The notes beneath the pieces are model-generated. The model did no database searches and was not told the origin of the DNA. It saw nothing but the letters and a program-made list of their open reading frames with translations. The position numbers and the translations under genes are program-made. DNA of 64,000 nt, from positions 248,001 through 312,000 of the forward strand of contig QPGO01000097.1 in NCBI GenBank assembly GCA_008632985.1, given 5' to 3'. This document shows, in pieces, positions 3,888-37,620 of the stretch; position 1 is the first letter of the stretch; each line of letters begins with the position of its first letter. This stretch comes from Psammoneis japonica (lineage: Eukaryota).

Positions 3888-4085
3888 ACATGACAGCACA
3901 GTTGGATGACATTTAGGACACCTTGTTTACATTGCGCACAATCTGCTGTTAAATTGCAACTCCCAATCCATTCTGCAGCTCACTGCTGCCGCAGCAAGTG
4001 GCGCGACGGTGCGACGGTCCGTTTGCAAAAAATTCAACAATGCTGCTGTGTGCTCTGGCTAGAGACAATCCCAAAACCAATGTTG

Positions 4086-5216: not shown

Positions 5217-5722
5217 GCTGCCGAGAATGCAAATGTCAAAAATCCCAGCTGGTGCTTTGCGTCCTCGATGCGTCCTCGATGCGTCCTCGAATCTCAGGCA
5301 CACACCAAATTTCTTTTCAAGTCAGTATGACATGAACAAAGATAAATTGTCTGATGCATTTGTGAAGGGCAGTCTTATCTGTATTGAACGTTTCAGACGG
5401 CATACCTTTACCGCAGACGTCCATTGCTTCTGGTGTCACACTTCCAGTAAATACACGTAGAAAATGTACTGATGTCTACGCACCCCAAATGGGGCTTCGG
5501 GTCGCTTTCGAGGATTTTTAGCGCGCACCGCCCTGGAGGAAATCACGTGAAGCCACCCGCTTCACAGCCGAACCCCATAGAAATTTGCGCGTGTGTCAGT
5601 TGGTCTGGCTGGATAATAAATTGCGTTTGCGTTTTGTCTGCGTGTGCGCCCGCGTGTTGTCACTTTTTCGAACAGGCGCACGTACAGCTTTTCTCTTTTC
5701 TGTGTCCAGTGTTTCATCCACC

Positions 5723-8700
5723 ATGGCGTCGTCTTACGAACCGACGCCCTTAGAAAAGGCCTACGCATCTTACCTTTTGGATAAAATCTTTCAAATAGAG
5801 AAAGACAACGATGTAATTCGTATCCCCGGGAGACTGGCTGTTCCATTTTTGACAACGGTAGGAGCATCGTGATTGGTGATTGTGACTGGTGACTGCATGC
5901 ACGGCAGGAAAGCGATTGATTTTTGGTTGAGTCGCGACTTGTTCGTTGCCTAACTTGTTGCATCTTTGTTTCATTTCGTTTACAGTCCGGGGTGGATAGA
6001 AATATCTTAAGGAATGCTTGGGGTGTTGCTGATCCGGAGAGCATAGGAAAGCTTAAGAGTCGAGAGCAGTTTTGTGTGGTGTTGAGATTGGTTGCACTTG
6101 CTCAAGCGGGGGCCGTGACTTCGGAAACAACCGACTTGATGGGAACCTTGAACGAAAGCAAAGAGGATGTTCCACTGGCTGCTTTTGAATCAGTAGAACT
6201 ACCACCCCCGGCTTCTCTCTTAGGTAACGAATGTCCTCCTTTTGCTTTTCCTTGTTTTGTTCCGAGTATTCAAAGCTTCAAATCCTTATACCTATTGTAA
6301 TTCTTTTAGACGAATACAGTGAACCAATGCATTTGGAAGAACCCCAACCGATCCTGTCGGTTTCAGACGCGTTTGGGGACTTGGTTCACGTTGAAGATGC
6401 CCCCTTACCTGTCTTACCAGTAGGCCCCCCTGTTGACGAAGTAGAGGACGTCGAAGATGATGAGTTTGGCGATTTTGAGGAGGCAGATGGTGAAAACGCA
6501 GCAGTAACTGCGACTGCTGTAGTTAGTGACGATGAGCTCGTTGAGGGCTTGGAGGAGACCGTCACGGACAATGAAGATGCGGCTGCAACACAAAAAGTCA
6601 ACGCGAACGCGACCTTGTTGAAGTTGGCTGATGAACATGGAGATGACGCGCTACCGGAGGTTGAAAGTGATCCACTGAATCCTCCGTCTGGGGGCAGTCC
6701 AGTGGATCGTGTGACAAATGATTTGTTTTACTCGGCTCATACTGAATTTTCAAAGAGTGAACAGCGAGAAGAAAATGAAGCTGACGAAGCCGACGACTTC
6801 GGAGACTTTACGGACGCCAAAGAAGAGAGCTCAGGCAATGAATTGGGGGATCTAAAGGAGGATAAGAATGGTGTCGACGGTGCTCCAGGTGACCTAGTAG
6901 TTTCCGACACGGAGGATGGAGGTCCTATAACTGGAGAAGTCGAATCCGGTAATGCAGCTGAATCGAAGTCTATGATGTCTCTGCCAGAGCCTGTAGACGA
7001 TCCGTTCTCCGCTTTTGATGCCTTGGCTGGTCCTCCTGCTGCTGCACCTGAACTCCCCCCTCTTGGTTCGTTTGCGCCGATTAACCCAGAAAGTGAATCA
7101 TCCGCACATATTCTGAACACTATGGGTGTCATGGATCAAATTGACACGCAGGAAAGTTTCGGTGACTTTAAAGAAGGTGGTGTCGCTTCGACAGGGGATT
7201 CTGGTCTACACTCTGTGCTATCGTCAAATGATAGTGCAGCACCAGGTGTATCAGCTGTGACCTCCGACGATTTTGGGAGTTTCGCAGACTCCCAATTCAG
7301 TGTTCGGGAACACGGCGATTTTGGAGATTTTGCCGCCGCAGACTCCGAAGCGTGTGCTCAGGAGCAGGAGGTGACTCAGCAGCAAGCATCGAAACGCAGC
7401 GCGTTGGGAGAAACCTTTGGGGATGTTGTTGGTGGACGTGATACCACACAGGATTCAGTTGCAGGGGCTCTTGATGCCCCTTCTCTTTGTACTCCAGTTT
7501 CCGACGAGCGACAGGAGCAACAAGAGACTAGCTTTGGAGATTTTGAGATTGCTCCCCCCGAGGGAAATGATTCGCTTCTCGATGCTGAACCGACGGGTGT
7601 GCTCGACAACGGAGGCCCAGGCGGTGTCTTCGAAACAACAGATGCCGTGGTCGACGGCGACACACCTACCCCTCATGATAATAATTCGGTTGACGGTGTG
7701 GCTTCAACAGGAAATTCCAAAGAAGACAAGGACGGGAGTGATTTTGGTGATTTCGAGGTTGTCCATGCGACCGATGTATCACCTGCAGTCGAGCAATCTG
7801 AATGTCAAGAAGAATTTGACGATTTCGGTGACTTTGAGGGGGCAGATGCGTTCAGCGATTCGCCACCCGGTGTCGATGAGCCTGCCGTCACTACACAGGA
7901 TTCCGACAACGAAGGGGGGGAAATGATCATTCCAGAAGGTGGTTTCAGCGGAACATCGAAAGGAGAACTCTCAAATGTTGCTGGTTTACCGGGGTATGGA
8001 GATACCCAATTGATTGCTCCAACAATGAGTGACGACTTTGGGGATTTTACTACTGCTGATGCTTTCAGTGGTTCATTAGACGCGGCTCAGCTTGAAACTG
8101 CGAAATCGGAGCCAGTAGTTGATTTATGTGGTCAAGAAGAAACTCCATCAAATGTTATAACAGATCACGATGCTTTTGGAGACTTCGAGGCTGCTGGCGC
8201 CTTCGACGGTTTGTCGCAGCCTGCACAGGCTGAATCTGCGACTTCGAATACGGAAACTTTATTTGGACGAGATATCGCGGCAAGCGCTGAAGAGCCTAGA
8301 GCCGTCCAGACGGATGGTCAAGGAGAAGAGCAAATGGTTGGTTTTCCTGAGCCGAGTACAGATTCTCCTCCTGAGCCGAGTACAGATTCTCCTGTAGACA
8401 AAGTAATCGAAAATCTGGGCGCACCGACTGAAGACGATTTTGGGGACTTTGCGGCATTCGATTCAGGAGAAGCTGCTGAAAACCTGGTAGCCAAGGAACA
8501 AGGCAACGACTCGGCACCTAACACAGAGCCGAGTGATGCTTTCGACGCCGACTTCGGTAGTTTTGAGTTCGCCGCGTTTGACGAAGAAATAAAGGAGGAT
8601 TCACTCGAGCAAATGAGAGAACAGATAGTAGCATCGCAGTCGTTACTTCCTTCATCACTAAACATGTTGGATGTCATCAAGAACTTCGAATCCGATGGTG

Positions 8701-9446
8701 GAGGTACTGGCGGATGGCGTGAGCTCGAAGAAAGAACCAAGGTAAGTTTTCCATTACAATGAAACTCCTTTCGCCACAAAGTGTCGAATGCCTGACGCTG
8801 CTCTTTGGACATGTAGACGGACCCGGGAAGTGCGCAACCAGATGTGGACCGCGCTCGTCGTTGCCATAAGCTCCACATGTTGTTGTCTTCCACTCACAAG
8901 CGACACGTGGAGTACTGGACGCAATTAGTGTCGATGGTAAGAGACGAAATGGCTACCTGCAAGTTACTCATGGAGGGAGCCAAGGAACTGTCGAGAGTAG
9001 AGCAGAAGCAGATTGTCCCTTCATTTGAAACGATGGTGTCTGGTCTTGCAGAATACATACGATTGGTGCGTCTGGTAGTCGCTTCAATCGGCGACTTGTT
9101 GGGCTTAAAAGTGGACGCTCCTCTCACATCATCTACGTTGAAATCCAGATGGCACTCGTTGGCGCTATTGGAGCTTGCTTTAGAAGCGGAAAATTTGTGG
9201 GACAAGACGTGTCAACTCGTGATTGAGCTGGGAATAGAGCGTCCCAAGGTGGACAGCGTGCCAGAAATTCGAAAGTCTTGCGTCCATCGCGGTTTCTCAG
9301 ACGAAGTCTGCACCCTTACTCTGCAGCCACTCTCTCCCGACGCTACCGGAACGACAATGGCTGAGGTCACATGGGACGGCAGGAAACTCATGGCATGTGC
9401 AGCAAATTTTTGGTCTCACAAGGTATCAGCTACAGTTCCCTGTTAG
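5723..9446 (+). CDS. EH-domain, FGDF-repeat clathrin/AP-1 accessory protein (synergin-gamma/aftiphilin-like); exons 5723-5857, 5986-6223, 6310-8741, 8817-9446
   Basis: EH-like N-terminus (PFLTTSGVDRNILRNAWGVAD...FCVVLRLVALAQAG), then an acidic disordered region with 10 FGDF and 2 FGSF motifs. Three GT-AG introns keep the frame. Confidence 0.75.
8346..8393 (+). repeat. 24-bp perfect tandem duplication in coding sequence (PEPSTDSP x2)
   Basis: CCTGAGCCGAGTACAGATTCTCCT occurs twice in tandem. Confidence 0.9.
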
Positions 9447-16175: not shown

Positions 16176-16525
16176 TTTCGCTTGTTTTGACGCTCAAAGA
16201 GAATGAACGGTTCGTCTCGAGATTTTTTACCGCGTACTTCTTACTAAAAAATCGAAAATTATCTAGTATTCAGATCCGCAAATTATATGAAAATAGATTA
16301 ACGCCAAATCGTGGCATCAGACGCAACGGAGCTTATCTCGTTGTTATTTTTGCGCGGGAAAAATCAATGTTGGAAGAGTGATGTGAACCAGGTGTTCCAT
16401 TCCGCATGGTCGCAAAACTGCAACGAGCTCGTGAGCACTCATAGACACTCATTGAATTAAATGCAATCTGGCGACCTGAGACAAGTGATTCAGTGTCCAG
16501 CCTCAACCTTGTCTCCCGAGATCCT

Positions 16526-16801
16526 TGACAGGATTTGAACAGGATTTGGGTGCGCGCGAAGTATCGCGCGCTGTTTAGTTTACCGCGCACAGTTTTGTGT
16601 GCTTTAGTTCCGCGCGTTCACGCGCGATGTAGTTTGCTTTCGAGCCACAAGGCTCACAAGAATAACAACAGTAGCCCGATTGTGCCGACTTGCACGTCTT
16701 TCGGCTCCTGCAACGGTCTCTGAGCAGAGACTCATCTGCTGTTTAGACAGCAGCAAGGAGTCATTGTTTGAATTCTTGCCATTTGCCTTCAATTTCTGTC
16801 A
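16526..16801 (+). repeat. 5' LTR
   Basis: Ungapped match to 23356-23631 with 14 mismatches; TG...CA termini. Confidence 0.95.
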
Positions 16802-17740
16802 GATTGACAGTCTTGCTCATTGTCAACCCATTGAGCAACCGCCATCGTCATCGTTGATTTGCCAACGATGCTGTTTCAATCCTGCATGGACCTCCGTGTG
16901 TGTTCTACATACATCGGCAAGTCTGCGCGCATTCAATGCCAGGGCATCGGCAGGAAGTTAACGTCACCGTCAAGTCTCCTTGCCGCTGGACATCTGGGTT
17001 GATTGCACTGCCTTTGATCGCTGAAGACACACATTCAACGGTCACATCCAAGTCTGTCCTTGATCAACATCCCTTGACACACCCATTCCTCGGTCAACGG
17101 TCAAGAACCCCACACATTCAAGGATCTCAGTTGCTGAAGACATGTGCACATGTGCACATCTTCACGGCCAAGAACCTTTGCCCACCCTTCGGACTGCGGT
17201 TTTGCCACCACTCTACAAGCACACTGAGTCCATTGTGCCTGATCTACCCCGGACTGCTGGTGCTCCACAGTTCCACCAGGTCCACGAGGACGACTGTGAG
17301 AGCAAGCAGCCGTGATTGCAGCCTGCATTGGGGCGAGGGTGCTTTCCCGCGTTTGTTCGTTCGTCCACAGCGCCTGACGCCTGCGTCAACTGGCCAGCCT
17401 GATCGGGAAATCCAACCGACGTGAAATGAGAATGGTTCGGGGGTCTTGTCCACCTCTGGTCAGCTCACCTGCAGGGGTTTGCAACCCGCTGCTCCGCTCG
17501 CAAGCAACCCAAAGCGCCGCCAGCTGCGGGTTCGGACGTGCCGGCACAACTCTGCGGACCGGACAGGAAGTTTAGCACTCGACAACGAACGGGATGGCAA
17601 AGCCCGGCGACTTCTGATTTTAAGACAGTTCAAGATTTCAAGTCAAGTCTGTTTCAAGTCAAGTCCATTCCCACCCAAGTTTCGAGTCTGCCTTCGCTTC
17701 CCAACCAGAATTGATTGTCCTGACACCACTTTTGTCTACC

Positions 17741-20700
17741 ATGGTTCTCACTCGTCAGCAACAAACCGATGGTTTCGAGCACGTTGTTGGAACCGTGCTT
17801 GCCCAAGGTGCTGGGAGTCCTCTTTGTTTGGCTTTGGCCCAAGATGGCACGGACTCGCATCAGGAACTGTTCACATTCATGCCGTCCCAAATCGACTCTC
17901 TTGAGTGCGACAACGGCACTGATGTGATCCCTTTGCCCCGTGGTTACAAGAACATGTCAGCAGCACTGGTTGGTCTGTACATTGTCAAAGCACACAAAGG
18001 TCTTGACGTTGCCAACGACTCCTCTTTGTTCACGCATGACGAGTTCCTTGCCTGCCGCCTCAGCCCCGACTGCATGTCTTCTGTGTCCATCGGCAGCTCA
18101 CCCCTTGCACCTCCGCATGTCACCAACCCGACCAAGGCACGCGACCCGGTGCGGGACTTCAAGCGAGGCATCAAGCGTGATCCCACCGCTTTCACGGCTC
18201 TCAAATCCGACAAGCAGTGGCACACTTGGCACACCTCACTTGTGGCACAAGCCCGTGCCCAAGACGTCGAGTGCATTCTAGACTCGTCGTACAAACCGAC
18301 CAGCCCCGAAGACAAACTGCTCTTTGCTGAACAGCAAAAGCACATGTTCGCCGTCTTCGAACGCATCCTTCTCACCGACAAGGGCAAGGCTCTCATTCGC
18401 GAAAATGTGGGGTCTTCTGACGCACAGACCGTCTGCCGCGCCTTGTCTGAGTGCGCGCTTGCCTCCACCCGCGCATCTGTCGAGTCCTCCACCCTGCTCA
18501 CGCACCTCACCACCGCACGTCTTGGTGATGGCACTTGGAAAGGTCCGACCCACGGGTTCATCCTTCATTGGCAAGATCAGTTGCGCAAGTACGAGGCACT
18601 CATCCCGGCCAGTGACCACTTCTCTGAAGGACAGAAGCGCGTCATGCTCGAGAATGCCGTGCACCCTGTCGAGGAACTCCATGCTGTCAAGAACCAAGCT
18701 GATCAGCATCGTACGCAGAGTGGCAAGAGCCTCACATGCGATCAACACTGTGGCTTGCTCCTCTCCGCGGCAGCTCAGTGCGACAGTGCGTTTCAACCCA
18801 AGACGACACCTCGAGCTCCCCGACGCGCCACATGCGCACACGACGTCTGCTCCGAGGAACCGTCCGACGACATGTTCTACGACATTGACAGCGACATTGA
18901 CGTCCTTCAGGCCAATGCCGCCTGCACCCGCGGTCCCAGCCTCACCGGTGACCAATGGAGACGTCTCCCTCCCGACCACCAACGGATCTGGGATTCGTTG
19001 CCCGATTCCTCCAAGGCGATCATCCTTGAGCATTCTCGTCTGCCTCCCCGCAACCCGCGAGCCAGTCACTGCCATGAGTCTGTTACGCCCAACCTTCACG
19101 ACCAACGCCTTGGGAGTGACGGTGATGTCAACTTGTCCAACACGACTCCTGCTGACTCTGGTGACTTCGCTCCAAATGTGGATGCCAATTCGGACAATCC
19201 CATCATGGCGCACCTCACCAAGCGCAAGTCACTGCCACCCGGTGATCTGCAACGTCTGTTGTCTCCTAACCAAACCCCCAATGCCAGTCGACCGGGGCCA
19301 TCCGCCGCTTCCTCTACCCCGCCAGCTTCTGCAGATGACATGGAACTCAACGGCCGCACTCACCGCCGCATTGACAACCACAATGTCATTTGCTCTGCCT
19401 CTGCTCATTGCTCCACACGCACTGGCGCTCTAGTCGATCGTGGGGCCAACGGCGGCATTGCTGGCGACGACGTTCGCGTCATTGCATGCACCTCTCGCCA
19501 AGTCGACGTTCAGGGCATTGATGATCATCAATTGGTGGACATCCCTGTTGTCACCGCTGGTGCCGTCATTGAGACCCAGCGTGGTCCCGTCATCGCCATC
19601 CTCCATCAGTGCGCATGCACGGGCAAGGGCAAGACCATCCATTCCTGCGGCCAGCTCGAATGGCACAAACAGGATGTCAACGATCGCTCTGTCAAGGTGC
19701 CCAACGGCTTGCAACGTGTTGCCACTCCTGATGGCCATGTCATCCCCATTGACATCAAGGCCGGCCTGCCTTGTGTTGCCATGCGACCTTACACTGACGC
19801 CGAATGGGACACCCTGCCCCATGTCATCCTCACCGGTGATGACACATGGGACCCTTCCGTCCTCGATCACTCTGTCACTGACGACGACCAGCGGCACGAC
19901 GCGATCTCTGACCCACAGGACGATCCCACTGCCAACCTGTTTGACGAGTGCGGCAACTGCCGTCATCGTGTCGTTGTCAACGAGACCATCATGTCCGCTT
20001 CCTTTTCTGCCGATCACGCGTCCGCCCTCGATGATCACCTCATTCCGAACAACGACGTGTTCTGCGAGTGTCATCTACATGCGATTGACCCCAAGGGCGA
20101 TGACGTTCCGCCTCCGGAGTGCACTGCACAGCCCAAGGACCCCCCCTTCGAGTCTCTTCAGCCTTGCTTTGGCTTCCCACCTGCCGATGCGGTCCGTCGT
20201 ACTTTTGACTGCACCACGCAGTGCGCCCGCATGCCCGCCGGCACACACCTTAGGAAGGCCTGCAAATCACCCAACCCCGCCCTTAATGTGCACCGCCGCA
20301 ACGAGCCTGTCGCCACTGACACCGTTTGTGCCGACACCCTGGCCGTCGACTCTGGTTGCACCAGCGCCCAACTGTTTGTTGGCACCGAGTCTGCCGTCAC
20401 TGACGTCTGCGGCACTGAGACGGACAAAGAGTTTGTCAACACACTCGAGGATCAGATCCGTGAACGTGGTGCCCCATCCAAACTCATTAGCAGCCGTGCT
20501 CAAGTTGAGATCAGCAACAAAGTGCTCGGGATCCTACGCGCCCTCTTCATCTCCAGCTGGCAAAGTGAGCCTCACCAGCAACACCAAAACTTTGCCGAGC
20601 GTCGACACCAGACCGTGAAGCGCATGGCGAACACTGTCATGGATCGTTTTGGTTCGCCCGCCCACACATGGCTGCTGGCGCTCATGTGCGTGTGCTTCAC

Positions 20701-23408
20701 ACTCAACCACACAGCGTCCCCACGTCTCCACTGGCGCACGCCCCTCGAGACTCTCACTGGCTCCACCCCGGACATCAGCCCATTGCTTCGCTTTCACTGG
20801 TGGGAACCCATGTGCTTCCACCTCGATGATCCGATTGGCCGTCCGAATCCCGTGAGTTGCGTGGACGCTTCGTTGGCATTGCTGAGCACGTCGGCCACCA
20901 GATGACCTTCAAGATTCTATCTGACGAGACTCAGAAGATCCTCTGCCGGTCCAACGTCCGCTCCGCTGCCACCGATCCTGCCGTTCGAAACCTGCGTCTT
21001 GATCCTCCTGATGGGGAGCCACCTGAACCCATCATCAAATCTCGCCATGACGACAACCCGTCGATTCTCCTGATGGGGAGATCAGGACACCCAAGATGCC
21101 AGTTTTTGATCCGCAAGACATCATTGGACGTACCTTCCTCATGCAGCCACAAGAGGACGGACAACGCCACAGAGCTCGCACCGTCAAGGCCGTCGAAGAC
21201 CACGAATGGAAAGTGAACGGCAATCCCGAGCTCACTAAGTTCGTCTGCTCTGTCAACAATGACGAATGCGAGGAAGTCCTTGCCTGCAATGACATCATGA
21301 ATCACATTGAGCAAGAAGACGAAGACACTGCCATTTGGAAATTTCGACGCATCGTGTCACACGAAGGACCTCTGAAGCCTCACGACCCAACCTGGAAAGG
21401 CTCAAGCTACAACATCATGCTTGAATGGGAAAGTGGGGAGATCACGTCCAAGCCTCTTGCCATCATCGCCAAGGACGACCCCGTCACCTGTGCCATCTAC
21501 GCACGAGAGAACGGACTCCTCGACACGGATGGCTGGAAACGGTTCCGCACCATCGCGAGGCGCCAAAAGAAGCTATTTCGCATGGCCAACCAAGCCAAGC
21601 TTCGCTCCTTCCGCACTGCACCTCGCCACAAGTACGGATGCGAAGTTCCCCGGAACTGCAAACACGCCATGTCACTAGACGAACGCAACGGCAACCGCAA
21701 GTGGGGAGACGCAACTAATCTTGAGATGGACCAACTCGACGAACAGGAAGTCTTCCATGACTGCGGGCCCTTCAAGTCTTCCACTCCTCCTGCGGGACAC
21801 AAGAAGATCCGAGTGCACCCAGTGTGCGACGTGAAACACGACGGTCGCCACAAGGCACGACTCGTAGCCGACGGGCACCTCACGGACGTACCTGTCGACA
21901 GTGTCTGCTCCGGAGCAGTCTCCCTCCGTGGCCTTCGGCTGATGATTTTCCTGGCCGAACTCAACGAGTTGGAGACATGGGCCACCGACATTGGCAATGC
22001 CTGCCTTGAAGCCACCACCAAGGAGAAGCTTTACATTGTAGCCGGACCCGAATTTGGCAAACTCGAAGGACACATCCTTGTCATCCACAAGGCACTGCAT
22101 GGACTGCGCAGCTCCGGTCTCCGCTGGCACGAGCGCTTCGCCGACTGCCTGCGAGCTGAAGGCTTCTTCCCCTGCCGCGCCGAACCCGACATTTGGATGC
22201 GCAGGAACGGCGACCACTGTGAACACATTGCCGTTTATGTGGATGACCTCGCCATTGCCATGAAGGACCCTCAATCTTTCGTCGACACTCTCACGGAAAA
22301 GCACAAGTTCAAGCTCAAGGGCACGGGACCCATTGAGTTCCATCTGGGTTGCGACTTTTCCCGGGATCCCGACGGAACCTTGTGCCTGTCTCCGCGCAAG
22401 TACATCGAGCGCATGGTCGACAGCTGCGCCCGACTGTTTGGGGAGAAACCTGCCACCAACGCCCTGTCACCTCTGGAGAAGGGTGACCACCCCGAACTGG
22501 ACACTTCCGAACTGCTGGGACCCGATGGCATTCACAAGTTCCAGTCTCTTGTTGGTTCACTCCAATGGGCAGTGTCCCTTGGTCGAATTGACATTGCCAC
22601 GGCCATCATGTCACTCTCTAGCTTCCGAGCTGCGCCCCGTCAAGGCCACTTGGATCGTGCCAAATGCGTCTGTGGGCACCTCTCCAAGATGCGACACGGT
22701 GCTCTCCGCGTTCGCACGGAAGAGCCCGACCATTCGGATCTCCCTGCTCCGGCCTGTGAATGGATGCATTCCGTGCATGGCGAAGCAGAAGAGATGATCC
22801 CGAAGGACGCTCCACCGCCCCTTGGCAAGTTCGTCACTGCCACCCACTACGTCGATGCAAACTTGTGCCATTGCATGCTCACCGGACGCTCTGTCATGGG
22901 AATGCTCCACTTCCTCAACAAATTCCCGGCTGATTGGTTCTCTAAGAAGCAAGCCACCGTGGAGACTGCGACCTGCAGGTCTGAATTTGTTGCCGCAAGG
23001 ACTTGTGTTGAGCAGATTGTCGACCTGCGCATCACCCTGCGCTGCCTTGGCGTCCCGGTCCGCAATGTCAGTTACATGTTCGGTGACAACAAGTCGGTTG
23101 TAGACAGTGCCACCATCCCGCACTCCAAGTTACACAAGCGACACACCGCACTGTCGTTCCACAGTGTGCGTGAGGCAATTGCCTCTGGTTGCCTTGAGTT
23201 CCACTTCATCGAAGGCTCCCGCAACCCTGCTGACATTCTCAGCAAGCATTGGGGTCACTCCCAAATCTGGGACCTTCTCCGCCCCCTCATGTTCTGGAAC
23301 TTCATTCCATCCGAAGTCGAATCTGTTTCTGTGACTCCTCAAGCAAACTGGGGAGTGACAGGATTTGAACAGGATTTGGGTGCGCGCGAAGCATCGCGCG
23401 CTGTTTAG
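17741..23408 (+). pseudogene. Copia gag-pol polyprotein with two frameshifts (~20830 and ~21070)
   Basis: Protease ALVDRGANGG; integrase VATDT...SEPHQQHQNFAERR; RT KHDGRHKARLVA, DIGNACL, AVYVDDL; RNase H YVDAN, SEFVAAR, FGDNKSV, NPADILSK. Confidence 0.93.
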
Positions 23409-23631
23409 TTTACCGCGCACAGTTTTGTGTGCTTTAGTTCTGCGCGTTCGCGCGCGATGTAGTTTGCTTTCGAGCCACAAGGCTCACAAGAATAACAACA
23501 GCAGCCCGATTGTACCGACTTGCACGTCTTTCGGCTCCTGTGACGGTCTCTGAGCGGAGACTCATCTGCTGTTTAGACAGCAGTGAGGAGTTGTTGTTTG
23601 AATTCTTGCCACCTGCCTTCAATTTCTGTCA
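23356..23631 (+). repeat. 3' LTR
   Basis: Ungapped match to 16526-16801; preceded by the polypurine tract. Confidence 0.95.
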
Positions 23632-23636
23632 ATCCT

Positions 23637-26270
23637 TGAGCAAGTCAGTCACAGTGATTGAGGCGGACCCAAACAAAGACACTCAAAAGCAAGTTCTTGC
23701 TGTGCTCTAACTGTTTCTCTTTCAATCATTGTCCCTGTTCTAAAAACATGTTTTGCATTGTGCTCCATCATCAGATGGATGACGAGAAACAAGAGGTTGT
23801 TGATGTGCCCGCTCGGATGTCATCAGATCAAAAATTAGATTGGGTGCAAACGTGCTCTGCCATTGTGGATGGTGATAGATGGTCCATGTCTCTCTTCACA
23901 CTTTGCATGGATGGAGTCATTCAAAAGCATTTGTGGCAACATTGAACGTGAGCAGAACATGCTGCGTGATGATGCATGCAAACATCCTTTTGTGACCACC
24001 AACTCTTGTTGTGCCATTGTCTCTTTTGTGGCTGTGCTCATTTGTCACTTGTTTTGTCTCATTCTGATTTCTGCAGCTGCCGTCATGGCATCATTCTCTG
24101 GGTGGCCAAACAAGTTGATTGCTCTTGCTGTTTGTGATTGCCAGCAGACAGTCAGAGAGTGGAAAGGCCAGGAGCTCAAAATGAAGACATGGCGATTCAA
24201 TGCAATGAAGAACGTTTCTTTTCTCAAGATTTCTAGATGCGGCGTCTCTGCTGCAGAACAGCTCTCACTTTTTGGTGAAAGAAAGAGCACCTTCGTGAAA
24301 CAATGACAGTTGCAAATTCAAATGGCAGCCTGCCAGCATCATTTCTTCCCTTGCCGCTGTTTCTGGAACATGCAGCAATGAGCAGCAGTTGAGTCGCTCT
24401 GTCCCACTCTTCTTCCACAGCTGGTGGCATTCTAGCCCAAAATCATCTGCAAGAGTGGCTGGTGGCATTTGACCCATGATGAAAATGTGCAGCACAACTC
24501 ATGACTCTCACAAATGCATCATTGCCACCAGCACTCTTGGATGTTGCGGGGGCTCCATTTGCATGAGTGCATGTGACATTCAACCTTCAAAAACAAATGG
24601 ATCACACAAGATTCATTGAAAATGCAAAAAACAGGTCTCACAATTCACACGGCTGCTGTGGCATCACAAGGCAGCTTTGCAAGCATCGGAGCTTGTGGCA
24701 GGCATTTCAGAGCTCATGAGCACTTGGTGCTGAGCAAACTGAAAACAGCTGGAACAAGCAACACAAGTGGCAAACCACAACAACTGACAAACACCAAACA
24801 TGCCCCCTTTCTTGCGACCAACAAGCATGAGAGCAAAAGAAGATGGGAGAGAAATTTTCCAACAGAGGCTCTATTGCAATCCAAGAAAGAAGGCTTGCCA
24901 TGTGGAAAGACATTTCCCTGAAGCTGTCAATCTTGTTCAATTTGTGTCAAATGATTTTCTGCTCCAAGTGAACATCCTTGTTGTTGGGAATGCAACTTGC
25001 TGCTGCTGGCCATCACACATTGCCTTGCAGTCAACAACACATTGCTGCAGCTGCGGCGCAGAGCTCTCAACACAGAGAGCTGCAGCACTTTCTGGGTTTG
25101 GCCCTTGCATTCGTTGGTGCACTGGGGTTCTGCAATTTGCCAGGCATGGCTGACAAGGAAGCCAGCGGTTCAAGAGTGGTGAACCCAATGTGTTGTGTGA
25201 CTGTGGCAATGCTGCTCTCACAAGAACTGTTGGCCCAGCAGGAGAGAAACTGGCCCAATGGACAAGTTGACAAACTTGAGGAGAGCATTTTCAGTGTTTT
25301 TCATCTGTTTGTGGGTTTTGGAATGTGCTGCAGATGAGCGATGAATGTCAGCATCAAAGTGGAAAACCAGAGCACCTGGTGGTCTTGTTGCCCTTGCAAG
25401 TCTCACAACAGCACTGCTTGGAGTTGTAAGATGCTCAATCAAGTGGAAGAGGAAACATGAATGAAGTTGAGGAGGCTGTCTGCGCAAGCTTCATCAAACC
25501 ATTGGCTGTGGGGCAGCAGAGTGGCTGCTGCAATTCATTCTGTTCTTGCCATCAATGTTGTTGCACATCCATTCTGGAGCTGGCAAAGGTTCTTCACTTC
25601 TTGCAGAGTTCATGCAAGAAGACGCCAGAGAAAACAGCTCTGCAGAGTGAAAGGAAGCATGGCTGTGACATCTGTCAGTGAAGGGGTCACAAGTCACAAG
25701 TGGTCGAGTGTGTTGTCCCTTTTGGACCAAAGTGATTTCAGCTTTGTAGATGGATTCAAAAGCTGTCCAAAAAGATGAAATTGACTGTGTTGGAGTTGCG
25801 CCCTCAGATTGCAAAAAACAAAAGCATGAAAAAGAGGAGAGGAGCACCCCAATGCAGCAGCAAAATGAGGAGCCAGGTTCTTGTGACACCATGTCGACAA
25901 TGACAACTCACACATGCGTTTGCTTTGTGAACATTCCAGACAGCAGAGTTTGCATCCAAAAATTTCCCACTCCTTGCAGCCACTGCTTGTGCACAACCCC
26001 ACTCTCTGTCTGCAGACAGTGTTGGCACAATGTGAGCAGACGATGGAGAGAAAGACTCTGCAGCTGAAAGGAGCCTCTGTCCCTCTCCCTCTCTCAGAAG
26101 AGAGGCCTCATCTAGAGAGTCTCCAGCTGTTGGCAGTGGCTCGATTAGAGAGAGAGGGTAGGAGAGAGCAGCTCTCTTATTTACTTGGTGCCACCGCAGC
26201 CACTGCCAGCTGCTCTCCAGCAGCTGTAGCAAGGTGGCAGAGCTGCAAACAATAGTTGTTGTTAGTTTGG
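23637..26270. repeat. Decayed repeat/TE relic, depleted of TpA and CpG; continues the 16380-16525 segment split by the Copia insertion
   Basis: Near absence of TA and CG, excess of TG/CA, and only spurious C/H/Q-rich ORFs. Boundaries are approximate. Confidence 0.7.
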
Positions 26271-28475: not shown

Positions 28476-28498
28476 GGTCAAAATGGCAAAACGGGGTG

Positions 28499-28522
28499 AC
28501 ACACACACACACACACACACAC
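28499..28522. repeat. (AC)12 microsatellite
   Basis: Read directly from the sequence. Confidence 0.9.
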
Positions 28523-29407
28523 GTCGCGAAGTCGAACGCCATCGAGCATCGAGGACCCGGACGTCGTACCGGTACGGTATGTTCTGGAGATGCGCGTTCC
28601 GCTAAAAAGAAATTTTCAACGTGGTCGAACTTTGTCCGTCATTTGAGAGACATGCTGCATTGGAGTGCATGGATCACTGTCATGACCATGCATGCGCGAC
28701 GATGTTTGGCTCAGTGACTGCAGATGGGGTCACAGCTGGTCAAACGCCAGTTTGTGAGAATCTGTGGGGCTCTGGAAGTTGGCAGCTGTAGAGAGTTTGT
28801 CGCTGGCGCAAGAAGATGAGCCCTCCAAAACCCTCTGTGGGGGTCGCCAGCAATGCCCCAAGGAGCCTGCCCATCTTTGCCAAACACCCCATTGACAACC
28901 CTCCAACAGGATGAGTGCTTTGGCTGTCCATCTGAAGCAAGTGGGGTCAATGCATTGGGCCCTGCATGGCTCCGTTGCGTTTTCCTGCAAATGCAAGGAG
29001 TGCCAACCCAGGCACAATTTGACCAACCTCCATTGTTTCAATGGAACACTGTGTGATTCCCGCAGCACCTGCAACAACCCTGTGCAAGCTGAAGCACCAG
29101 TGCAAAGTTCCTGAATTCACCTTTGTTTGTCCTCCACAAAAAATGCAGATTGCTTCCCCAGCTCTCCAACTTCTGCCTCCACCTGCCGGTCTTGCATGTG
29201 CACCCTCTTTTCAGTGAAACTGAATTCTGTGGAATTTTCATCTGCTCTTTTTCTCCCACATTGCTCCAGCTCAACTTGGTGGCAACTGAGATTTCAACTT
29301 GTGTCTCTCAAGATGTGCGTGCTTCTTTCTTCCTGCAGTGCAATTTTTGTTGTTGAAACAGCTTCTGTTGCCTCTTCAACATCCACCACAACAAACAAAT
29401 TTGGGGT

Positions 29408-29595
29408 GCAGCCAGTGGTTGTTCTGAGTTGGTGAAGCCTGCTGATGACTCTGCTGCCAGGGCTCATCTCGTGGCTCTCACACATTGGTCAGTTGGTCGG
29501 GCAGCCCAGTGGTTGTTCTGAGTTGGTGGAGTTTGCTGATGACGACTCTGCTGCCAGGGCTCATCCATGGCCCTCACATTGGTCAGTTGGTCGGG
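29408..29595. repeat. ~94-bp tandem duplication; a shorter motif GCTGCCAGGGTTCATCCCATGG recurs to ~29955
   Basis: The unit CCAGTGGTTGTTCTGAGTTGGTG...CACATTGGTCAGTTGGTCGGG occurs twice. Confidence 0.8.
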
Positions 29596-32500
29596 GGTGC
29601 AGGTCTCTTGGTGTGGACAACAGTCACATGGCTGCCAGGGTTCATCCCATCACCTCCATTTTTGTCAGGGGTGCAGCGAGCAGTTGTTTGGAGTGCAAGA
29701 GCACACTGATGATGCCGCCAGGATTCATCCCATGGCCCCTGGGTCAGGGGTGCAGCTGACTTGTCACAGCTTCCCTTGACTTGTGTTGTCATTGATCATT
29801 CCCACTGCCCCAATTGTTGCGTGGGTGCAATGGTCAGATCCTCTGACATTGTTGGATTTGAAGCTCCCAGAGATTGTGCTGCCAGGTTTCATCCCATGGC
29901 CCTCACCTTTGGCAAGGGTGTGCACAGCTGATGCCACTGCCAGGGTTCATCCAGTGCCCCCACGCAGTTGAACATGGATTTTGTTGGAGAAGGTGCACTG
30001 AGTGGAACCTTGTGTTTGGCAAGCTGCCCCACTGTTGCTTCCCAGTGTTCCAACTTGGTCCCTTGCACCTTGGGGGATGCATTCTGTGCTGCCTTTCTAG
30101 CTTGACTGTCCAACATTCCAACCACAGTTTTCAGTGCATCTGGTCTGACAATGTCTTTGCCACTCCCTTCCACTGTTTTTTGTCAGCTCTGAGTCAAGCT
30201 CCACTTCCTGGGCATCATCTGATTTTTGTCTGTGTCAGACCATTCTTCTGCTTCTTCTGCTTCCAAATCTCTCCCTGATGGCAGCACAAGTCAACAAGTG
30301 GTTGCTGGTCCCAGTCTGCCTCTGTCTTCCACACCAGCTCCTTTTGTCATTTTTCCATGACTCATGCCTCCATTTTGATTCAGTGCCCAGCAAATGGGGA
30401 GGACTTGAGAATGTTGAATGTTGGCATGGTGTGCAAAGAAGATTCCTGCTGGAAGATGAGTGCATCAAAATCATGCAATGTTGGGAAAGCCAGCCAGGAG
30501 TGATGGCCACACATCAGCTGTGCTCACTTTGCATTGCCTGGTCTTGATTCCATCCTTGATCATTTGATTTCAAGGCTCTTTCCAAGAAAAATGGAGAGCT
30601 GCTTGCCAAAGATCTGGTTCAGCCAGACAGCTCTTCACATGACTTGTCATTGTCCAAGTTTGCTTCTTCCTCATCTGTTGCCAAGCATCAATTGCTGGGC
30701 ATGCACAAGGACTGTGGCAGCACTTTGAGTCCATGTGCCAGACGGAAACATTCTTGCAATGGCACCAGCAGTCATGCATGCAAAGCGAAAGATCCCATTG
30801 ATCTGCCAGCCTTTGTTGGTTGCTCAAACCACATCAAACAAGATCAAAATCTTTGTTGGTTGTCGGACAAAGAATTTCTGTTCAATCACAATGACCCCAA
30901 CGACATTGACACCAACAAAGCAATGAGATGCACCCTGGATGCTGCATGCTGTCTGTTCATCTTGCCAACACAAGCATTGCTCATCCATTGGGAAGCCATT
31001 TTGACAAGCAAAGCAGCTCAAAGAAAACCAAAAAGCAGTTGTGTCACCATCTCGGGCTGCCTTTGGCGGTGCTTGCAATCCACAATGCACTGCAGCCATG
31101 GGTTCCATGCATCAAGAGCATGATGAACAGATTGTGGAGGAGAACATTCATTCACCACAAGTCAACATGGTCTGGGAGGTTTGCACTCTTTGCCCAAGTC
31201 TTGTTAAACCGCCGGCACATGGGTCACTTCAGAAGTGGTGGTGCTTTGGCAGACAAGTGCATCCCCAATTTTTAAGTCATCAAGATGAAGTGCAATCTTG
31301 ATCCTCATGGTCATTTGCCATCCTCTGTCAATGTCATTGATGAGTTGACAAAATTTGCCAGTGCTCCCTTTTGTCCCTTGGTGCTGTGTCTTTGTTGCAT
31401 CCTTGGGCACTCGTGTCTCCCCAGCCTTGTTGTTTGTTTCCTCATGCACAGTGGTTGTGGAGCAACAGAAATTGAAACCCACTCACCTCGTGGAGTTCCA
31501 TGTTGGCTGCTTGGTTGCACGCACCGTCAGGGAGATCAACCACAAGCTTCAACAAAAGAGAAGAGGAATTTTCCTCCACCACAATGATGCTCACATCATC
31601 ATCCACTGTTCCTTGCAACCAGCAAAGTGTGGCACAAAGAGCACTCCTCAATTTCTGATGTGATTCTGTCAGCACAAGATGCAAAGGAAGTGGGACATTC
31701 CCACCACTTGCAAGTTGCAAATGGGACAGTGCCATGCCGTGTGTTTCACCGTTGCCCCTTTCATTCTGAGCTTCAAAGATCTTGGCATCAACGATCTAAT
31801 GGGATTGATGGTGACCATTGGATTTGCACTTTTCCATTTCATCAACCTCGCCCATGCCAACAAAAACAGCAAGGCAATGAAACAGTGGACACTTGACCGA
31901 CAAAAGTGTTCTGGATGAAATGGTGGAGACCATCACAAAGAACCTTTGTGCTGCCTTTGCAAATCTCTATGGAGAAGTCATTGCTTGCCATGGAGGGGGA
32001 AACTGAATTTGTGAAGCCTTTTGCAGTGCAAAATCCAGTGCTTCCAATGGCAACAAATTCTTTGAGTTGCATCAGCCAGAATCTTTTTGTTGCCAAAGAA
32101 TTGTTTGTTCATGTCATTGTGACCTGTGCAAGTCACAAAGGAAAGCATCATGCTGCTGAGGTGAAAGGCAGCCCACATCAGAAACTTCCTTGCAGGGGAG
32201 ATTGTGCACCCATGGCAGACTTGAAAAAAATTGTGCACCTGAAGAACATCATGGTGCTGGTCATGTTGGCAACTTCAGTGATCAGCTCCTCAACAAGCTT
32301 CTGAGTTCCTGCAGAGGAACAACGTTCCAGTTTATCCCCACCCCAGATTTTGAGGGATGTGCTTATAGAGGGGCACACCATTGGGTCCAAACCCCATCAA
32401 CTTCAAAAGGAAAGGAACCACATCAGGTGGACAGAGATGCAGAGGGGTGACTTGTTGTGAAGGAAGGCAAAGGCTCCTGACAAGGATGACTTGCACAAGT

Positions 32501-34559
32501 TTGGAAGGTGCCTCTCCAACACACAGCTGACAATGTGGAAGGAAACATTGTGACAAACCACAGAAGGCAGAGGTGTGCTGTCTGAAGTGGAATGAATTGG
32601 GGGCAGCTTTGCCACCTTGAGTCAGATGAACCACAGCCCCATGCATTGAAAAAGTGTGTGGTGTTGTGATGTGTGGCAGGAAGGCAGAATCATGAGCAAA
32701 TGAGTGACAGACCATCATGTTTGAATTGACAAGTCTGCATCAGTGGTGATGAATTAGACCAGCAGTCACAGTGCACACCAGGAACAAGGGTGCACAAGAT
32801 GGCAGGATCCATCACAAGGCTGCCAGGCACATGTCTGCACACAAATGCAGCAGCACATGGCACTGTGATTGCAGTGCATCCCATGGACAAAAATCTTGCT
32901 TCTCTGGAAACCAGCAAAACACACAACTGCACCATGCTGTGGTCAGAAATGATCAGACAAGTGAGTGGACTGCACCAAAGCCTGACAAGACAAAAGAAGC
33001 CCAAGCAACACAGTGCAAACTGCTCAGACAACTTACATTGAACTCATCAGATGATGAAATGAGCAGGTGCAACAGGGAGCAGTGCAAACAGACATGCTGG
33101 TGTTGAGACAGTGGTGCAGAAATCAAATGAGGGGTTGTTTGTGACCAGTGGGGCTCTCACCACCTCCACTTCAGATGAAGGGGAAGATGCAACAAGGGAC
33201 AAATGAAAAAAGACAACACAACAACAAAAGAGCAACAGGGACAGAATTGGTTTGGAGAGCTGCTGCAACAAGAACACACTTCTCTGTGAGCACAAGTTTC
33301 TGCTGAATGAAAAGGCCATGAGACACCATGATGGCAGGGCAGCAATGATTTTTCATCTGAACTCAACATGCCACAAGTCAACAGGGTGCAGATGTGGGAC
33401 ATGTCAAAGAAGGACAAGGTGCAAAGACATGCAACAAGAAAAAGGAACAATGCCTGTGGTGGAGAACTCAAAAAGGAGCTTTTCCACAATTGTCATTGTG
33501 AGGGCAATGGCAGAGCATTGACAACAAACATGTGTTGTGGCTCACAAACAACAAGATCAGCTGGATCATGCAAGGAACAGATGTTGTTCTTCTTGGGAGG
33601 ACATGCTGGAGGGTGGGAATGACACAAAGGCACACAACCACTGCACGTGACACTTCCCACCCATTGTTGTTGGGAAGACCATGTGGAAGCATTGGCTTCA
33701 ATCAAGATGTTGCTTGAACAAGCTGGCATCATCAAGCAATGAGGCACTTGGTCTGTTGGTGTTAGAAAACAATTGGAGTGAGTGGGTGTGCGTGCATGGA
33801 AAATCTGGGGAAGAGCTCAAGGACAAGAGACTTGTTCCTGCCATGAAGCACAGCACTGGGAAAGGAAAACAAGCAAGAAGAAACCAAGGTTGAAACAAAC
33901 AAGGACTTGACAGGCCAAGAATTTTGGGGAAGGAGATGTGCAAGAAGAGATTGAGCAAGGATGCAGAGCAATGTGATGAAATGAGATCCCAGGAATTCTG
34001 GAAATGCATCAATGGCACAGAAGCCATGACGGAGAAGATGGGCAATGAGATTGCAACAAAGGACAATGACGACATCAATGAAGAGGAGTTGTGTTTGTGG
34101 AAGGCTTGCAAATGGCAGTGCAGTTGTCATTTGGTGACAATCTACAATGAAAGGCAAATGAAAGGTGAGACAAGAAACAGCCGGTTGATGATGCCGAAGG
34201 AAATCAAGCAGCAAAAGCATGCACCAAAAAGATGAAACAAGAGCAAACACTGTAAAATGGGGTTTTACATCAAAATTGTTTGTGTGGTGTGACAACCAGA
34301 AATGACAAGCACAGCTGTGCTGTGAACAATGACATGGCCATGTGAACAATTTGGCGTGCTGATGTGGCAAGCCCAAACTGAAATGAGCCAGGATCCACAT
34401 TGCAATGCAGGTCAAACTCATGTGGAAAATTGTGAAAAATTCAGGTTTGACATGCATGATTTGATTGAGCCCAAGCCGAATTGTTCTTCCCTCTGATGCC
34501 CCCCCCCCCCCAGCATCATTTGTGAGTGTGCCCATTCTTGTGCCCATCTGTTGCTTTCC

Positions 34560-35720
34560 ACAAGAACATTCTTGGCTGGTCAAGAGCACTCCTGGCCAGT
34601 CAAAAATCAAGAGCCAGCTGGTCATTTCTTGAACATCAAGTGATTTTGGGAGATTCTGGAAGTTGGTGATTGTCACAGGAAAGTTTGTCACTGGCGCAAG
34701 CCACTCAAAAAGAAATGCCTCCCAAAGCCATTTGTGAGGGTTGCCAGGCATGTCCCAAAAAGCTTGAGAATCTTTGCCAAACACCCTCTGCTGACATCAA
34801 TTGCATCAAAGTGTGTGCTTTGACTGAACCTCATGTTTCAAGCAGTTTGGCAACTTTGTGTGCACTGCATTTTGTTGTCAACTGCTGCTCTGAAGAGGGC
34901 ACAGGGAAGTGCTGGCCACAGCTCTGTGCACACTCTCTGTGGGGGACATCATGGCCCACTGCAGTGCAGCTGCACCATGTGGCACAGCAGCTCTGGCAAA
35001 GTTGTTGTTGTTGTTGTTGTTGTTGCCCATCTGTTGCTTCTCACAAGAACATTCCTGAAAGGCTCTTGTGACCAGTCAAAAATGAAGGGTGGTCAAGAAC
35101 ATTCTTAGCCAGTCCAGTGCTCTTGACTGGCTGGCCAAGAATGTTCTTGACTGCTCAAAGAGAATTCAGATTTTTGGAAGTTGGTGATTGTGCAGAGTTT
35201 GTTGCCAATGCAAGGCACTCAACAAGTCTCTCAAATTCCTTTGTGGGGATCACCGGCAATGCCCCAAGAAGCATTGGCGCATCTTTGCCAAACACGACCC
35301 TGCTGCTGACAACCCCCCAACAAGATGTGTGCTTTGACTGAGCCTCATTCCAGCCAGTCTTGCAGGCTTGCACATGCTGCACTTCAGTGTCAACTGCTCC
35401 AAAGGCAATGCTGACTGCAGCTCCATGCCTGTTCTCCAAAGGAGACATGACCCACCACACATTGTGCGCAACTTCACCTTGTGGCACAGCAGCTCTTGCA
35501 ATGTTGTTGTCACTGTAAAGCTGGGCAGGAGTTTGTAAAGCTGGACAGGAGTTGTGTCTTTTTGGCTTGTTGCTTCTGTGCTGCCTTTGAGGCATCCAAG
35601 AATGCACTGTGTGTCAGCATGCATGCATCTTTTTTTGGGCCTGTCTGTTGTTTCACACAAGAACATTCTTGGCCATTCTTGACTTTTGACTGGTTGGTTA
35701 AGAACATTTTTGACCATCAA
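34560..35720. repeat. Diverged ~500-600-bp tandem units with palindromic subrepeats; a related copy lies at ~28770-28930
   Basis: CACAAGAACATTC at ~34560, ~35042 and ~35657. TGGAAGTTGG...ATCTTTGCCAAACAC...GTGCTTTG at ~28773, ~34657 and ~35175. Confidence 0.75.
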
Positions 35721-36949: not shown

Positions 36950-37620
36950 ACCCAACTTTGCCAACAAGTGATCATCATTGTTGAGCACAGGACAGTCCTT
37001 TTCACATGCCCAATCTTGTTGCATTTCCAGCATTGATCTGCTTCTTCTCATTTTGCACAAAGCTTGTGCCCTCAGGTTTCATGTTGCACCCACATGTGTC
37101 TGACAGCTGCAGCAGTGCCTCCTTGGCCAAATCAGGACAATTGTCAATCCCCAGTGTGAGCTGCATGTGCAGGTTTTCAAGACATGCCAACATTCCTTGG
37201 CTCTTTCCATTGGCAGTGCCACTGACAACTTGTTTCCTTTCTTTCTTCTGGGTGTCGCCAGCATCCTTGCTGCACCCATCTTTTTTCTTGGCAATTTCTT
37301 CCAGGATGAGTCTGCTGCAGGACCCTTCCACCATCTCAACAATGCTTGTGAACCAACTGCAACAATCTTGAAGCACCTCTCCTCATCTTGATGAATGAGC
37401 ACCAACTGCTTCAAAGCTTTGGCAGCCTGGACATGCGAGCATTTGTGTTGAACAAGATTGCTGACTTGAGTTCTTTCAATGGTGCCACCATGTCCCACTC
37501 CTTTGCAACCTTCTCAAACTCTGTCACTTGCTCAACCTTGCGAAGGATGGCTTTCATGCAATGCCCCATCATCACACCAAGCTGCCCTTTGCTTCTGCAT
37601 CTCACAGATCCTCTCCTGCT
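36950..37620 (-). pseudogene. Remnant of a diatom Copia-type gag
   Basis: KGQLGVMMGHC...KVEQVTEFEKV, FTSIVEMVEGS and LENLHMQLTLGIDNCPDLAKEALLQL resemble, from my recollection of the family, CoDi gag motifs (LG.DNYP) with Y changed to C. Confidence 0.55.

Follow-up and report, generated by a model that had tools for sequence, protein, structure and literature searches.

A TpA-specific A:T>G:C mutation signature in transposons and other non-genic DNA of a diatom

In a 64-kb stretch of the genome of Psammoneis japonica (contig QPGO01000097.1; the whole stretch is hereafter called the window), TpA dinucleotides are almost absent from a Copia retrotransposon and from other non-genic DNA, while the host genes in between are spared. 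The change runs from TpA to TpG or CpA, is specific to that dinucleotide, falls equally on both strands, has hit different copies independently and, within the window, is confined to non-genic DNA. We consider a DNA-level, TpA-specific A:T>G:C mutation process acting on transposons and other non-genic DNA of the diatom, with host genes spared, to be the probable cause. The element, at 16526–23631, is a complete Ty1/copia long terminal repeat (LTR) retrotransposon and consists of the following parts (o/e, observed/expected ratio; ORF, open reading frame; RT, reverse transcriptase):

16521–16525, no strand: target-site duplication ATCCT, 5' copy, by direct reading, with the same 5 bases after the 3' LTR
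16526–16801, + strand: 5' LTR, 276 bp with TG..CA ends, TA o/e 0.47, CG o/e 1.18 (self-BLAST and composition)
16802–17740, + strand: untranslated leader, TA o/e 0.16 (composition)
17624–20905, + strand: ORF1, 1093 aa stop-to-stop with an ATG at 17741, the putative gag/protease/integrase region (ORF list)
20830–21216, + strand: bridging ORF in the third frame (ORF list and read contigs)
21051–23408, + strand: ORF2, 785 aa with an ATG at 21096, Copia-type RT/RNase H with 8 Tyr (Pfam RVT_2; 120 homologues)
23346–23355, + strand: purine-rich tract AACTGGGGAG abutting the 3' LTR, polypurine-tract-like by position only
23356–23631, + strand: 3' LTR, TA o/e 0.44, CG o/e 1.17 (self-BLAST and composition)
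23632–23636, no strand: target-site duplication ATCCT, 3' copy (direct reading and a read contig)

The element holds 62 TA (o/e 0.18), where 335 are expected from base composition and 195 at the level of host DNA (0.58; Poisson P = 1e-28). CG is kept at 508 (o/e 0.91), TG and CA are in excess (o/e 1.46 and 1.35), and the GC content is 0.57 compared with 0.48 in host DNA. A first-pass annotation had described the Copia interior as nearly free of TpA yet retaining CpG, which these ratios bear out, and the hand counts behind it are exact (1 TA and 18 CG at 19501–19800; 15 TA at 43201–43500). Its count of just 8 Tyr in the pol ORF (ORF2) is equally correct and corresponds to 1.02% of residues, where the homologues have a median of 4.26% and never fall below 2.31%. 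TA o/e lies between 0.12 and 0.23 in all three codon phases of both Copia ORFs (host ORFs have 0.5–0.7 in phases 2-3 and 3-1), and the non-coding leader, at 0.16, is depleted like the ORFs. Given that the depletion is present in every codon phase and in the non-coding leader, codon choice is not its cause.

The loss also shows in the stop codons. Between 16802 and 23355, TAA and TAG occur at 1.5 and 2.4 per kb compared with 8.0 and 8.7 in host DNA; the frequency of TGA, ~20 per kb, has not changed. Because TAA and TAG are almost absent, many long spurious ORFs have opened in all six frames, such as those at 18278–19228 (− strand, 316 aa), 18282–19433 (+ strand, 383 aa) and 19434–20618 (+ strand, 394 aa).

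The direction of the change can be read from the RT protein. We aligned the RT ORF with 120 homologues (54–69% identity, mostly from aquatic metagenomes) to give an alignment of 121 rows, and took a column as conserved for Tyr if at least 70% of the 120 homologues carry Tyr there. At the 26 such columns the window copy has Tyr 7 times, Cys 8, His 7, Phe 2, Trp 1 and Gln 1, and some of the replaced columns are conserved up to 100% among the homologues. Other conserved residues are retained at 385 of 419 columns compared with 7 of 26 for Tyr (Fisher P = 4e-14), including Asn (11/11), Lys (23/26), Glu (22/23), Gln (6/6), His (18/19) and Phe (18/18). Cys makes up 3.18% of the pol ORF (1.12% in homologues), and the Tyr of the catalytic YVDD motif, at 22236, is retained. 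The motif pairs on which the first-pass annotation had built its claim of directional TpA to TpG/CpA change on both strands are all present in the BLASTP alignment to homologue P0001 and in the 121-row alignment (window/homologue: NACL/NAYL, KALHGL/KALYG, VHPVC/VHFVY, VCSGAV/TYSGVV, ETATCRSE/ETATYGSE and LRCLGVP/LRYLGVP), and the 8 Cys and 7 His at the 26 Tyr columns support that claim.

A>G changes do concentrate after T. Relative to host DNA, the dinucleotide ratios are 0.11 for TA, 0.97 for AA, 0.97 for TT, 0.85 for AT and 1.01 for AG. Since codons with A or T outside TpA, such as those for Asn and Lys, are untouched, A>G is limited to positions after T and T>C to positions before A. Cys and His outcomes are balanced, at 8:7 in the window and at 8:6, 8:9 and 8:4 in three depleted relatives from metagenomes (L035, L030 and L015), and the CA and TG outcomes are randomly interspersed (runs test z 0.2–0.3). 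The change is thus an A:T>G:C transition at TpA, made equally on both strands. Polymerase-eta-type repair with its WA hotspots (W, A or T), one of the mechanisms suggested in the first-pass annotation, is excluded: it would give A>G at both TA and AA, yet AA is undepleted (0.97), AG stands at 1.01 and the Asn and Lys codons are intact.

The TpA that survive are unevenly distributed over their flanking bases. Compared with host DNA, the rarest are ATAT (0 versus 208), ATAC/GTAT (0.01), ATAA/TTAT (0.05) and ATAG/CTAT (0.07), and the commonest are CTAA/TTAG (0.30), TTAA (0.27) and CTAG (0.20). These tetranucleotide ratios are rough, as the host baseline is mostly coding, and roughly describe an extended context in which RTAY is hot, or most purged, and YTAR is cold, or least purged (R, purine; Y, pyrimidine). 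The LTRs fit this context, given that 3 of the 6 TpA shared by the two LTRs lie in TTAG.

Purging is not restricted to the Copia element. Four TpA-purged segments total 25.75 kb of the window, and the rest of the sequence is at host level:

2251–5250, no strand: purged segment, TA o/e 0.08, CG o/e 0.68
16751–23250: Copia interior, TA o/e 0.16, CG o/e 0.90
23632–26000, no strand: TpA- and CpG-poor non-coding DNA beside the element, TA o/e 0.06, CG o/e 0.26 (measured on 23501–26000)
28501–42250, no strand: 13.75-kb TpA- and CpG-purged segment, TA o/e 0.04, CG o/e 0.15, TG o/e 1.86, CA o/e 1.82
remaining 37.5 kb: gene-dense DNA, TA o/e 0.58, CG o/e 1.02

The first segment contains a remnant of a DDE_3 transposase at 4089–4958 (− strand; Pfam DDE_3, E 1.4e-8, 35.1 bits, cut-off 28.6) that has no Tyr at all. 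In the alignment with its single close homologue, P0241 (65% identical), the 8 Tyr of P0241 correspond to His 3 times, Cys 3, Gly 1 and Phe 1. Among the 130 ORFs scanned across the purged segments, this remnant alone scores above a Pfam cut-off; no Pfam family was found in the 16 ORFs of 23632–26000 and none above the cut-off in the 93 ORFs of 28501–42250, so that by the Pfam scan 16 kb of purged DNA have no recognisable origin. Both of these stretches are single-copy by contig depth (~60 for 23632–26000; measured over 28531–34512 for 28501–42250). Across the four segments TpA loss precedes CpG loss, which is why the young Copia element 'keeps CpG'.

The remaining 37.5 kb consist of intron-poor host genes, among them those for eL27, a pentatricopeptide repeat protein, a KDEL receptor, a rhomboid protein and an M16 peptidase. 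The named organisms among the 120 best matches of the M16 peptidase are diatoms at 56–62% identity (Seminavis, Cyclotella, Nitzschia, Thalassiosira, Fragilaria, Odontella, Cylindrotheca and Epithemia), except for one ciliate transcriptome. By comparison, the genes of the alga Bigelowiella natans, considered below, are intron-rich.

Several features lie in or near the purged segments. The DDE_3 remnant is Tc1/mariner-IS630-like and sits within its 3-kb purged segment beside a WW-domain-like ORF (3483–3884) that falls below the Pfam cut-off. A (CA)n microsatellite occupies 28497–28522, at the edge of the large purged segment, and diverged direct repeats (68–88% identical) lie inside it at 29408–29595, 34654–35510 and 36543–38392; these internal repeats hint at an old repetitive or composite element in 28501–42250. 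A host-like 843-aa ORF at 6231–8762 (+ strand), which matches no Pfam family, has 4 TA in codon phase 1-2 where 49 are expected and a local TA o/e of 0.24, especially at 7251–8000. It may be a low-complexity gene or a partly purged one.

Other copies of the family were studied in one public read set (4 runs from one sample and study, none listed as RNA), used as contigs. At 90% identity or more the element has 13,045 matching contig pieces, of which 3,633 reach 99% or more, and the single-copy flanks have a depth of ~60; summed contig depth is not a copy number. The Copia family is very high-copy and recently amplified. Transitions, going both ways, dominate the variable places by far (61 A>G, 62 T>C, 69 C>T and 73 G>A, next to 30 transversions). 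Among the listed places, 24 in the element vary among copies, and these include 18 TA/TG/CA alternations (4 of them adjacent CA-versus-TG doubles) and 4 CpG-related differences. Codon 561 is CAT in the window and TGT in 63% of the depth of the other copies, with Tyr in 81 of the 120 homologues; codon 193 is CAC in the window and TAC in 81% of the other depth; and codon 195 is TAC in the window and TGC in 66%. The same ancestral TAY therefore became CAY in some copies and TGY in others.

The read contigs also show the insertion to be absent from one allele. In a 928-bp contig, 16520 is followed directly by 23632 and the target duplication is present just once, which is an exact empty site and therefore marks the insertion as young. 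The Copia insertion is hemizygous or polymorphic in the sequenced material, and much of the depletion of the window copy was probably inherited from its source copy and not acquired at this locus. In the purged flank, the window haplotype has TG and the other haplotype TA at 2 of 3 listed allelic differences (23699 and 23950), although these are unpolarised.

The two LTRs (16526–16801 and 23356–23631) are 94.9% identical by self-BLAST. They differ at 14 of 276 positions, all by transitions and 12 of them in YR dinucleotides, comprising 3 TA versus CA/TG, 3 CG versus CA/TG, 3 CA-versus-TG doubles and one TT/CC. A model with one rate for the LTR pair was rejected, given 6 shared TA, 3 single changes and 3 doubles, with the survivors mostly in TTAG.

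The signature is also detectable in environmental data. We examined 49 relatives from metagenomes that are 39–73% identical at the protein level, and found no copies of the same family among these 49 loci. Their median TA o/e is ~0.68, and 3 of the 49 are strongly depleted (L035, 0.15; L030, 0.26; L015, 0.33), the other 46 not. The three carry Cys or His at the same conserved Tyr columns, with choices between the two that differ from the window copy and from each other, and L035 and L030 lack the YVDD Tyr. Partial replacement of Tyr by Cys or His is seen in 2 of the 120 database homologues. Partial versions of the signature were noted in L015, P0068 and P0113. L035 and L030 are 93.3% identical to each other, come from contigs of sister metagenome records, and compare as follows:

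TA in both: 5
TA in one, CA or TG in the other: 25
CA in one, TG in the other: 21
CG in both: 97
CG in one, TG or CA in the other: 9

CpG decay is rejected as the source of the CA-versus-TG doubles, as it would yield ~0.1 compared with the 21 observed. The counts are consistent with ~72 ancestral TpA, of which the two copies lost 82% and 65% independently. TpA loss is ~30 times CpG loss and about 50–100 times the rate at other positions; as a historical estimate, TpA loss summed over both copies is ~2.8 per site compared with 0.029 per other position.

Taken as a mechanism, the process would mutate transposon-derived and other non-genic DNA directly, turning TpA into TpG or CpA on either strand at a rate several-fold to about 30-fold above that of methylated-CpG decay. 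Because it would outpace CpG decay, younger elements should be TpA-poor but CpG-rich and older DNA without both. It would make no stop codons and would erase TAA and TAG, which would leave long open frames and replace Tyr by Cys or His. The Copia copy would be a young polymorphic insertion from a high-copy lineage that had already accumulated TpA changes. An enzyme probably carries it out, and the process may serve as genome defence. Much less certain is the kind of enzyme, for which, by analogy with B. natans, an adenine deaminase of the TadA/ADAT2 kind that works on silenced chromatin would be the likeliest candidate. A further-reaching version, in which diatoms have an active, enzyme-driven editor that changes TpA in silenced mobile DNA more quickly than 5mC decay and prefers RTAY over YTAR, this editor is the same defence in the diatom as in B. 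natans (ancient among eukaryotic algae, or convergent), surviving TpA-free lineages become immune and bloom, and the Copia family is an escape lineage in an arms race, strikes us as possible but doubtful; here some transposon lineages would survive editing because stop codons are never created.

Two parts of the original proposal go beyond these data. Repeat-targeting is not demonstrated, as the 13.7 kb of purged DNA is single-copy by contig depth (measured over 28531–34512). Nor is inactivation of transposons by missense change, given a high-copy family with open ORFs, a retained YVDD Tyr and an empty-site allele.

A number of observations weigh against a TpA-specific mutator acting on this DNA. 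The polarity depends on outgroup proteins with no more than 54–69% identity, the sparing of host genes (TA o/e 0.58) holds for the 64-kb window and is not a genome-wide result, and the variable places are the 40 listed of 311, 37 of them inside the element. The LTRs are far less depleted (TA o/e 0.44–0.47) than the interior. At 13 listed places the window copy disagrees with 98% or more of the other depth, and 8 of these are CpG>TpG/CpA and none is a TpA loss; the others are 4 other transitions and one place (18591) that is TA in the window and TG elsewhere. The recent history of the window copy therefore looks like ordinary CpG decay, so that the TpA process must be episodic, or have exhausted its hot sites, or have acted before insertion. 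If the hot sites are exhausted few new TpA losses are expected, because the 62 TpA that remain are mostly in cold contexts. Moreover, the purged family has spread to very high copy number, which fits simple inactivation poorly: either the Cys and His residues are tolerated or the family is mobilised in trans. Finally, an LTR divergence of 5.1% is hard to reconcile with a young insertion, being 15–50 times that between alleles in the flanks (3 of 3474 and 27 of 7846 letters); it could stem from hypermutation in situ, from gene conversion by other copies or from mis-polishing.

Among the alternatives, an artefact of long-read assembly or polishing has next to no chance of explaining the signature. 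Many 1-base indels do separate the window from the read contigs in single-copy DNA, and the sequencing runs are perhaps from the same sample as the assembly. Base substitutions agree, however, with 0–11 differing letters per contig piece of 0.7–2.3 kb (2–11 per 0.7–2.3 kb in single-copy TpA-poor DNA), and the same signature is present in metagenome contigs of other projects and in 2 of 120 database proteins. The reads thus support the bases of the element, in that independently assembled contigs agree and 3,633 of the 13,045 pieces match it at 99% or more. It is also highly improbable that no special mutator is involved and that the family is TpA-poor through selection, codon bias or a TpA-poor donor, with Cys and His as ordinary lineage substitutions. 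Most of the depletion is common to many copies and the host genome is itself moderately TpA-poor (0.58), as this explanation would have it. It is nevertheless largely refuted by depletion that is equal in all codon phases and the non-coding leader, Tyr replaced at columns up to 100% conserved, different outcomes at the same site in different copies, unrelated sequence classes of the window that are also purged, and 46 of 49 relatives that are not strongly depleted.

Editing could instead take place during retrotransposition, with adenines of the genomic RNA and/or cDNA deaminated in a U/T-A context and fixed at integration, so that depletion would build up along active lineages. This would suit the TA/TG/CA differences common to sub-families next to private changes of the window copy that are CpG decay, the high copy number, open ORFs and conserved YVDD Tyr expected of a lineage under selection, the weaker depletion of LTRs that need promoter function, and the preference of ADARs for a 5' U, as given in the available part of one preprint (bioRxiv 10.64898/2026.01.13.699255). 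Editing of a template-strand RNA, however, yields only sense TA>TG, and in 4 of 4 depleted elements Cys and His arise equally. The DDE_3 remnant, which has no RNA or cDNA stage, has a TA o/e of 0.08 and no Tyr, 13.7 kb of single-copy non-coding DNA has 0.04, and L035 and L030, without the YVDD Tyr, were hit after they had ceased to be functional sources. Because the strands are equal, a DNA transposon and single-copy non-coding DNA are purged and dead copies without the YVDD Tyr are hit, change at the DNA level is preferred over editing of an RNA template, and we regard editing in the retrotransposition cycle as quite improbable. Somewhat apart stands the same DNA-level process with its primary lesion on thymine, for example if T at TpA in silenced chromatin is oxidised to 5-hydroxymethyluracil or a base modified further, and mispairing or faulty excision repair then gives T>C. 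TpA is self-complementary, which makes T>C before A indistinguishable by sequence from A>G after T, and equal CA and TG outcomes are compatible with either base. Dinoflagellates hypermodify thymine with a TpA preference. Aberrant repair by a thymine glycosylase can yield T>C, according to the portion of a study that was accessible (PMC4041421). This analysis lends no support to such a base or enzyme in diatoms, the RTAY-hot/YTAR-cold context does not discriminate, and the sole published proposal for the signature, as far as the accessible text goes, is adenine deamination; a thymine lesion is in our view unlikely, and deamination of adenine at TpA in DNA would be the likelier form of the mutation process.

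The first-pass annotation knew of no description of such a process. A 2026 preprint on B. natans, a chlorarachniophyte, reports exactly this signature in its available text (Mettrop et al., bioRxiv 10.64898/2026.01.13.699255). As described there, 231 of 302 de novo mutations in mutation-accumulation lines fell in two viral insertions and 230 of these 231 consisted of A>G or T>C changes, all of them at TpA, at rates ~1000-fold over background and episodically, in 11 of 15 lines. TpA-depleted coding sequences were enriched for reverse transcriptase and DDE endonuclease domains, and an ADAT2-type adenine deaminase was proposed (bioRxiv 10.64898/2026.01.13.699255). The hypermutation of giant-virus and virophage DNA in B. 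natans and the diatom signature are alike in A>G/T>C change at TpA on both strands, with host DNA normal in B. natans and, within the window, in the diatom; in B. natans the change is confined, by that account, to foreign DNA. The two differ in lineage (rhizarian versus stramenopile), in evidence (de novo mutations versus historical change) and in targets, which are integrated viruses in B. natans and, in the diatom, nothing recognisable as viral but a family of LTR retrotransposons, the remnant of a DNA transposon and non-coding DNA of unidentified type. From what the accessible text reports, depletion is nearer saturation in the diatom (o/e 0.04–0.18, compared with 0.45 in the nucleocytoplasmic large DNA virus region of B. 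natans), older purged diatom DNA also loses CpG unlike in the B. natans case, and the RTAY/YTAR context noted here finds no mention. By analogy, we take the diatom signature to reflect a DNA-level process of the same kind, at work in a second lineage.

Other known systems resemble the signature in part. Fungal repeat-induced point mutation (RIP) likewise is a dinucleotide-specific transition hypermutation of transposons with missense changes, and is a conceptual analogue as genome defence. It acts in the opposite direction, as the first-pass annotation had rightly claimed: RIP changes C to T mainly at CpA and makes TpA and stops, whereas in the diatom TpA is destroyed, GC is raised and stops are lost. 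RIP also depends on repeats and is linked to meiosis; part of the purged diatom DNA is single-copy. Deamination of 5-methylcytosine at CpG makes TpG/CpA and hits silenced transposons, and CpG decay is active in the window (8 of the 13 listed copy-private changes; CG o/e down to 0.15 in old segments). It cannot remove TpA, and the earlier claim that it is no explanation stands, since TpA is lost while CpG is near intact (0.16 and 0.90 in the Copia interior). ADAR (A>G) and APOBEC editing of retroelements in animals similarly leaves clustered transitions fixed in genomic copies but works on RNA or single-stranded cDNA and is strand-asymmetric, whereas in the diatom both strands are equal and even a DNA transposon has been hit. 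RNA hyper-editing of the ADAR type, with retrotransposition fixing the edits, was rejected, as the strands are symmetric and the DDE_3 remnant and single-copy DNA are equally purged. To our knowledge, ADARs occur in animals only. For LTR elements, G>A editing by APOBEC has been described in animals, in the part of that source available (PMC4866542). The CoDi retrotransposons of diatoms are LTR elements with an RVT_2 reverse transcriptase like the one studied here, for which high copy number, CpG methylation and insertion polymorphism have been described (Maumus et al. 2009, PMC2806351); the accessible text of that paper contains neither 'hypermut' nor 'RIP', no dinucleotide analysis and no TpA purging. 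A search of full-text literature returned no account of TpA purging in diatoms, and a match to 'TpA' in PMC4504042 was the word 'Tpase'.

The coding capacity of the Copia element is recognisable mainly in ORF2, which matches Pfam RVT_2 (E 9.1e-25, 88.1 bits, cut-off 31.6) and has 1,910 homologues at E 1e-10 or better. For ORF1 (1093 aa), a Pfam scan gave no match, even with E as high as 10; towards its end an integrase-like core was spotted by eye only and has no Pfam support. Its composition is 0.57% Tyr, 3.5% Cys and 4.6% His. In read contigs, other copies carry an extra C after 20829 and another after 21056, with which the three ORFs would fuse into one polyprotein. The frame breaks at these two places may be assembly indels, because single-copy DNA also differs from read contigs by 1-base indels. 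Such contigs, at full depth in single-copy DNA, carry 1–2 extra bases at 24873, 29565, 30354, 30916, 31184, 31433, 33913 and other places, which are residual assembly indel errors or allelic indels. At 23298–23408 the pol ORF extends ~35 residues beyond the ends of its homologues and into the 3' LTR, with its last conserved residues scrambled; TpA changes may have removed the original stop, or a terminal frameshift may be responsible.

For annotation, purged DNA is rich in long false ORFs in which only TGA stops are left, and gene callers would over-predict there. Transposon proteins drop below the thresholds of domain models in purged genomes, and dates based on LTR divergence will be wrong there.

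Until now this signature had been described solely in a 2026 preprint, for a single rhizarian alga, and A:T>G:C hypermutation directed at one particular dinucleotide would give a eukaryote a newly recognised means of damaging invading DNA. What the diatom adds to the B. natans case is depletion close to saturation, change at a rate well above that of CpG decay, an extended context, and a TpA-free transposon family that has apparently been successful. The presence of the signature in a diatom and in environmental Copia relatives would mean that the process is not a curiosity of one species and that it acts on transposons besides viruses, and diatoms, with their genetic tools, methylomes and many genomes, offer a group in which to study it.

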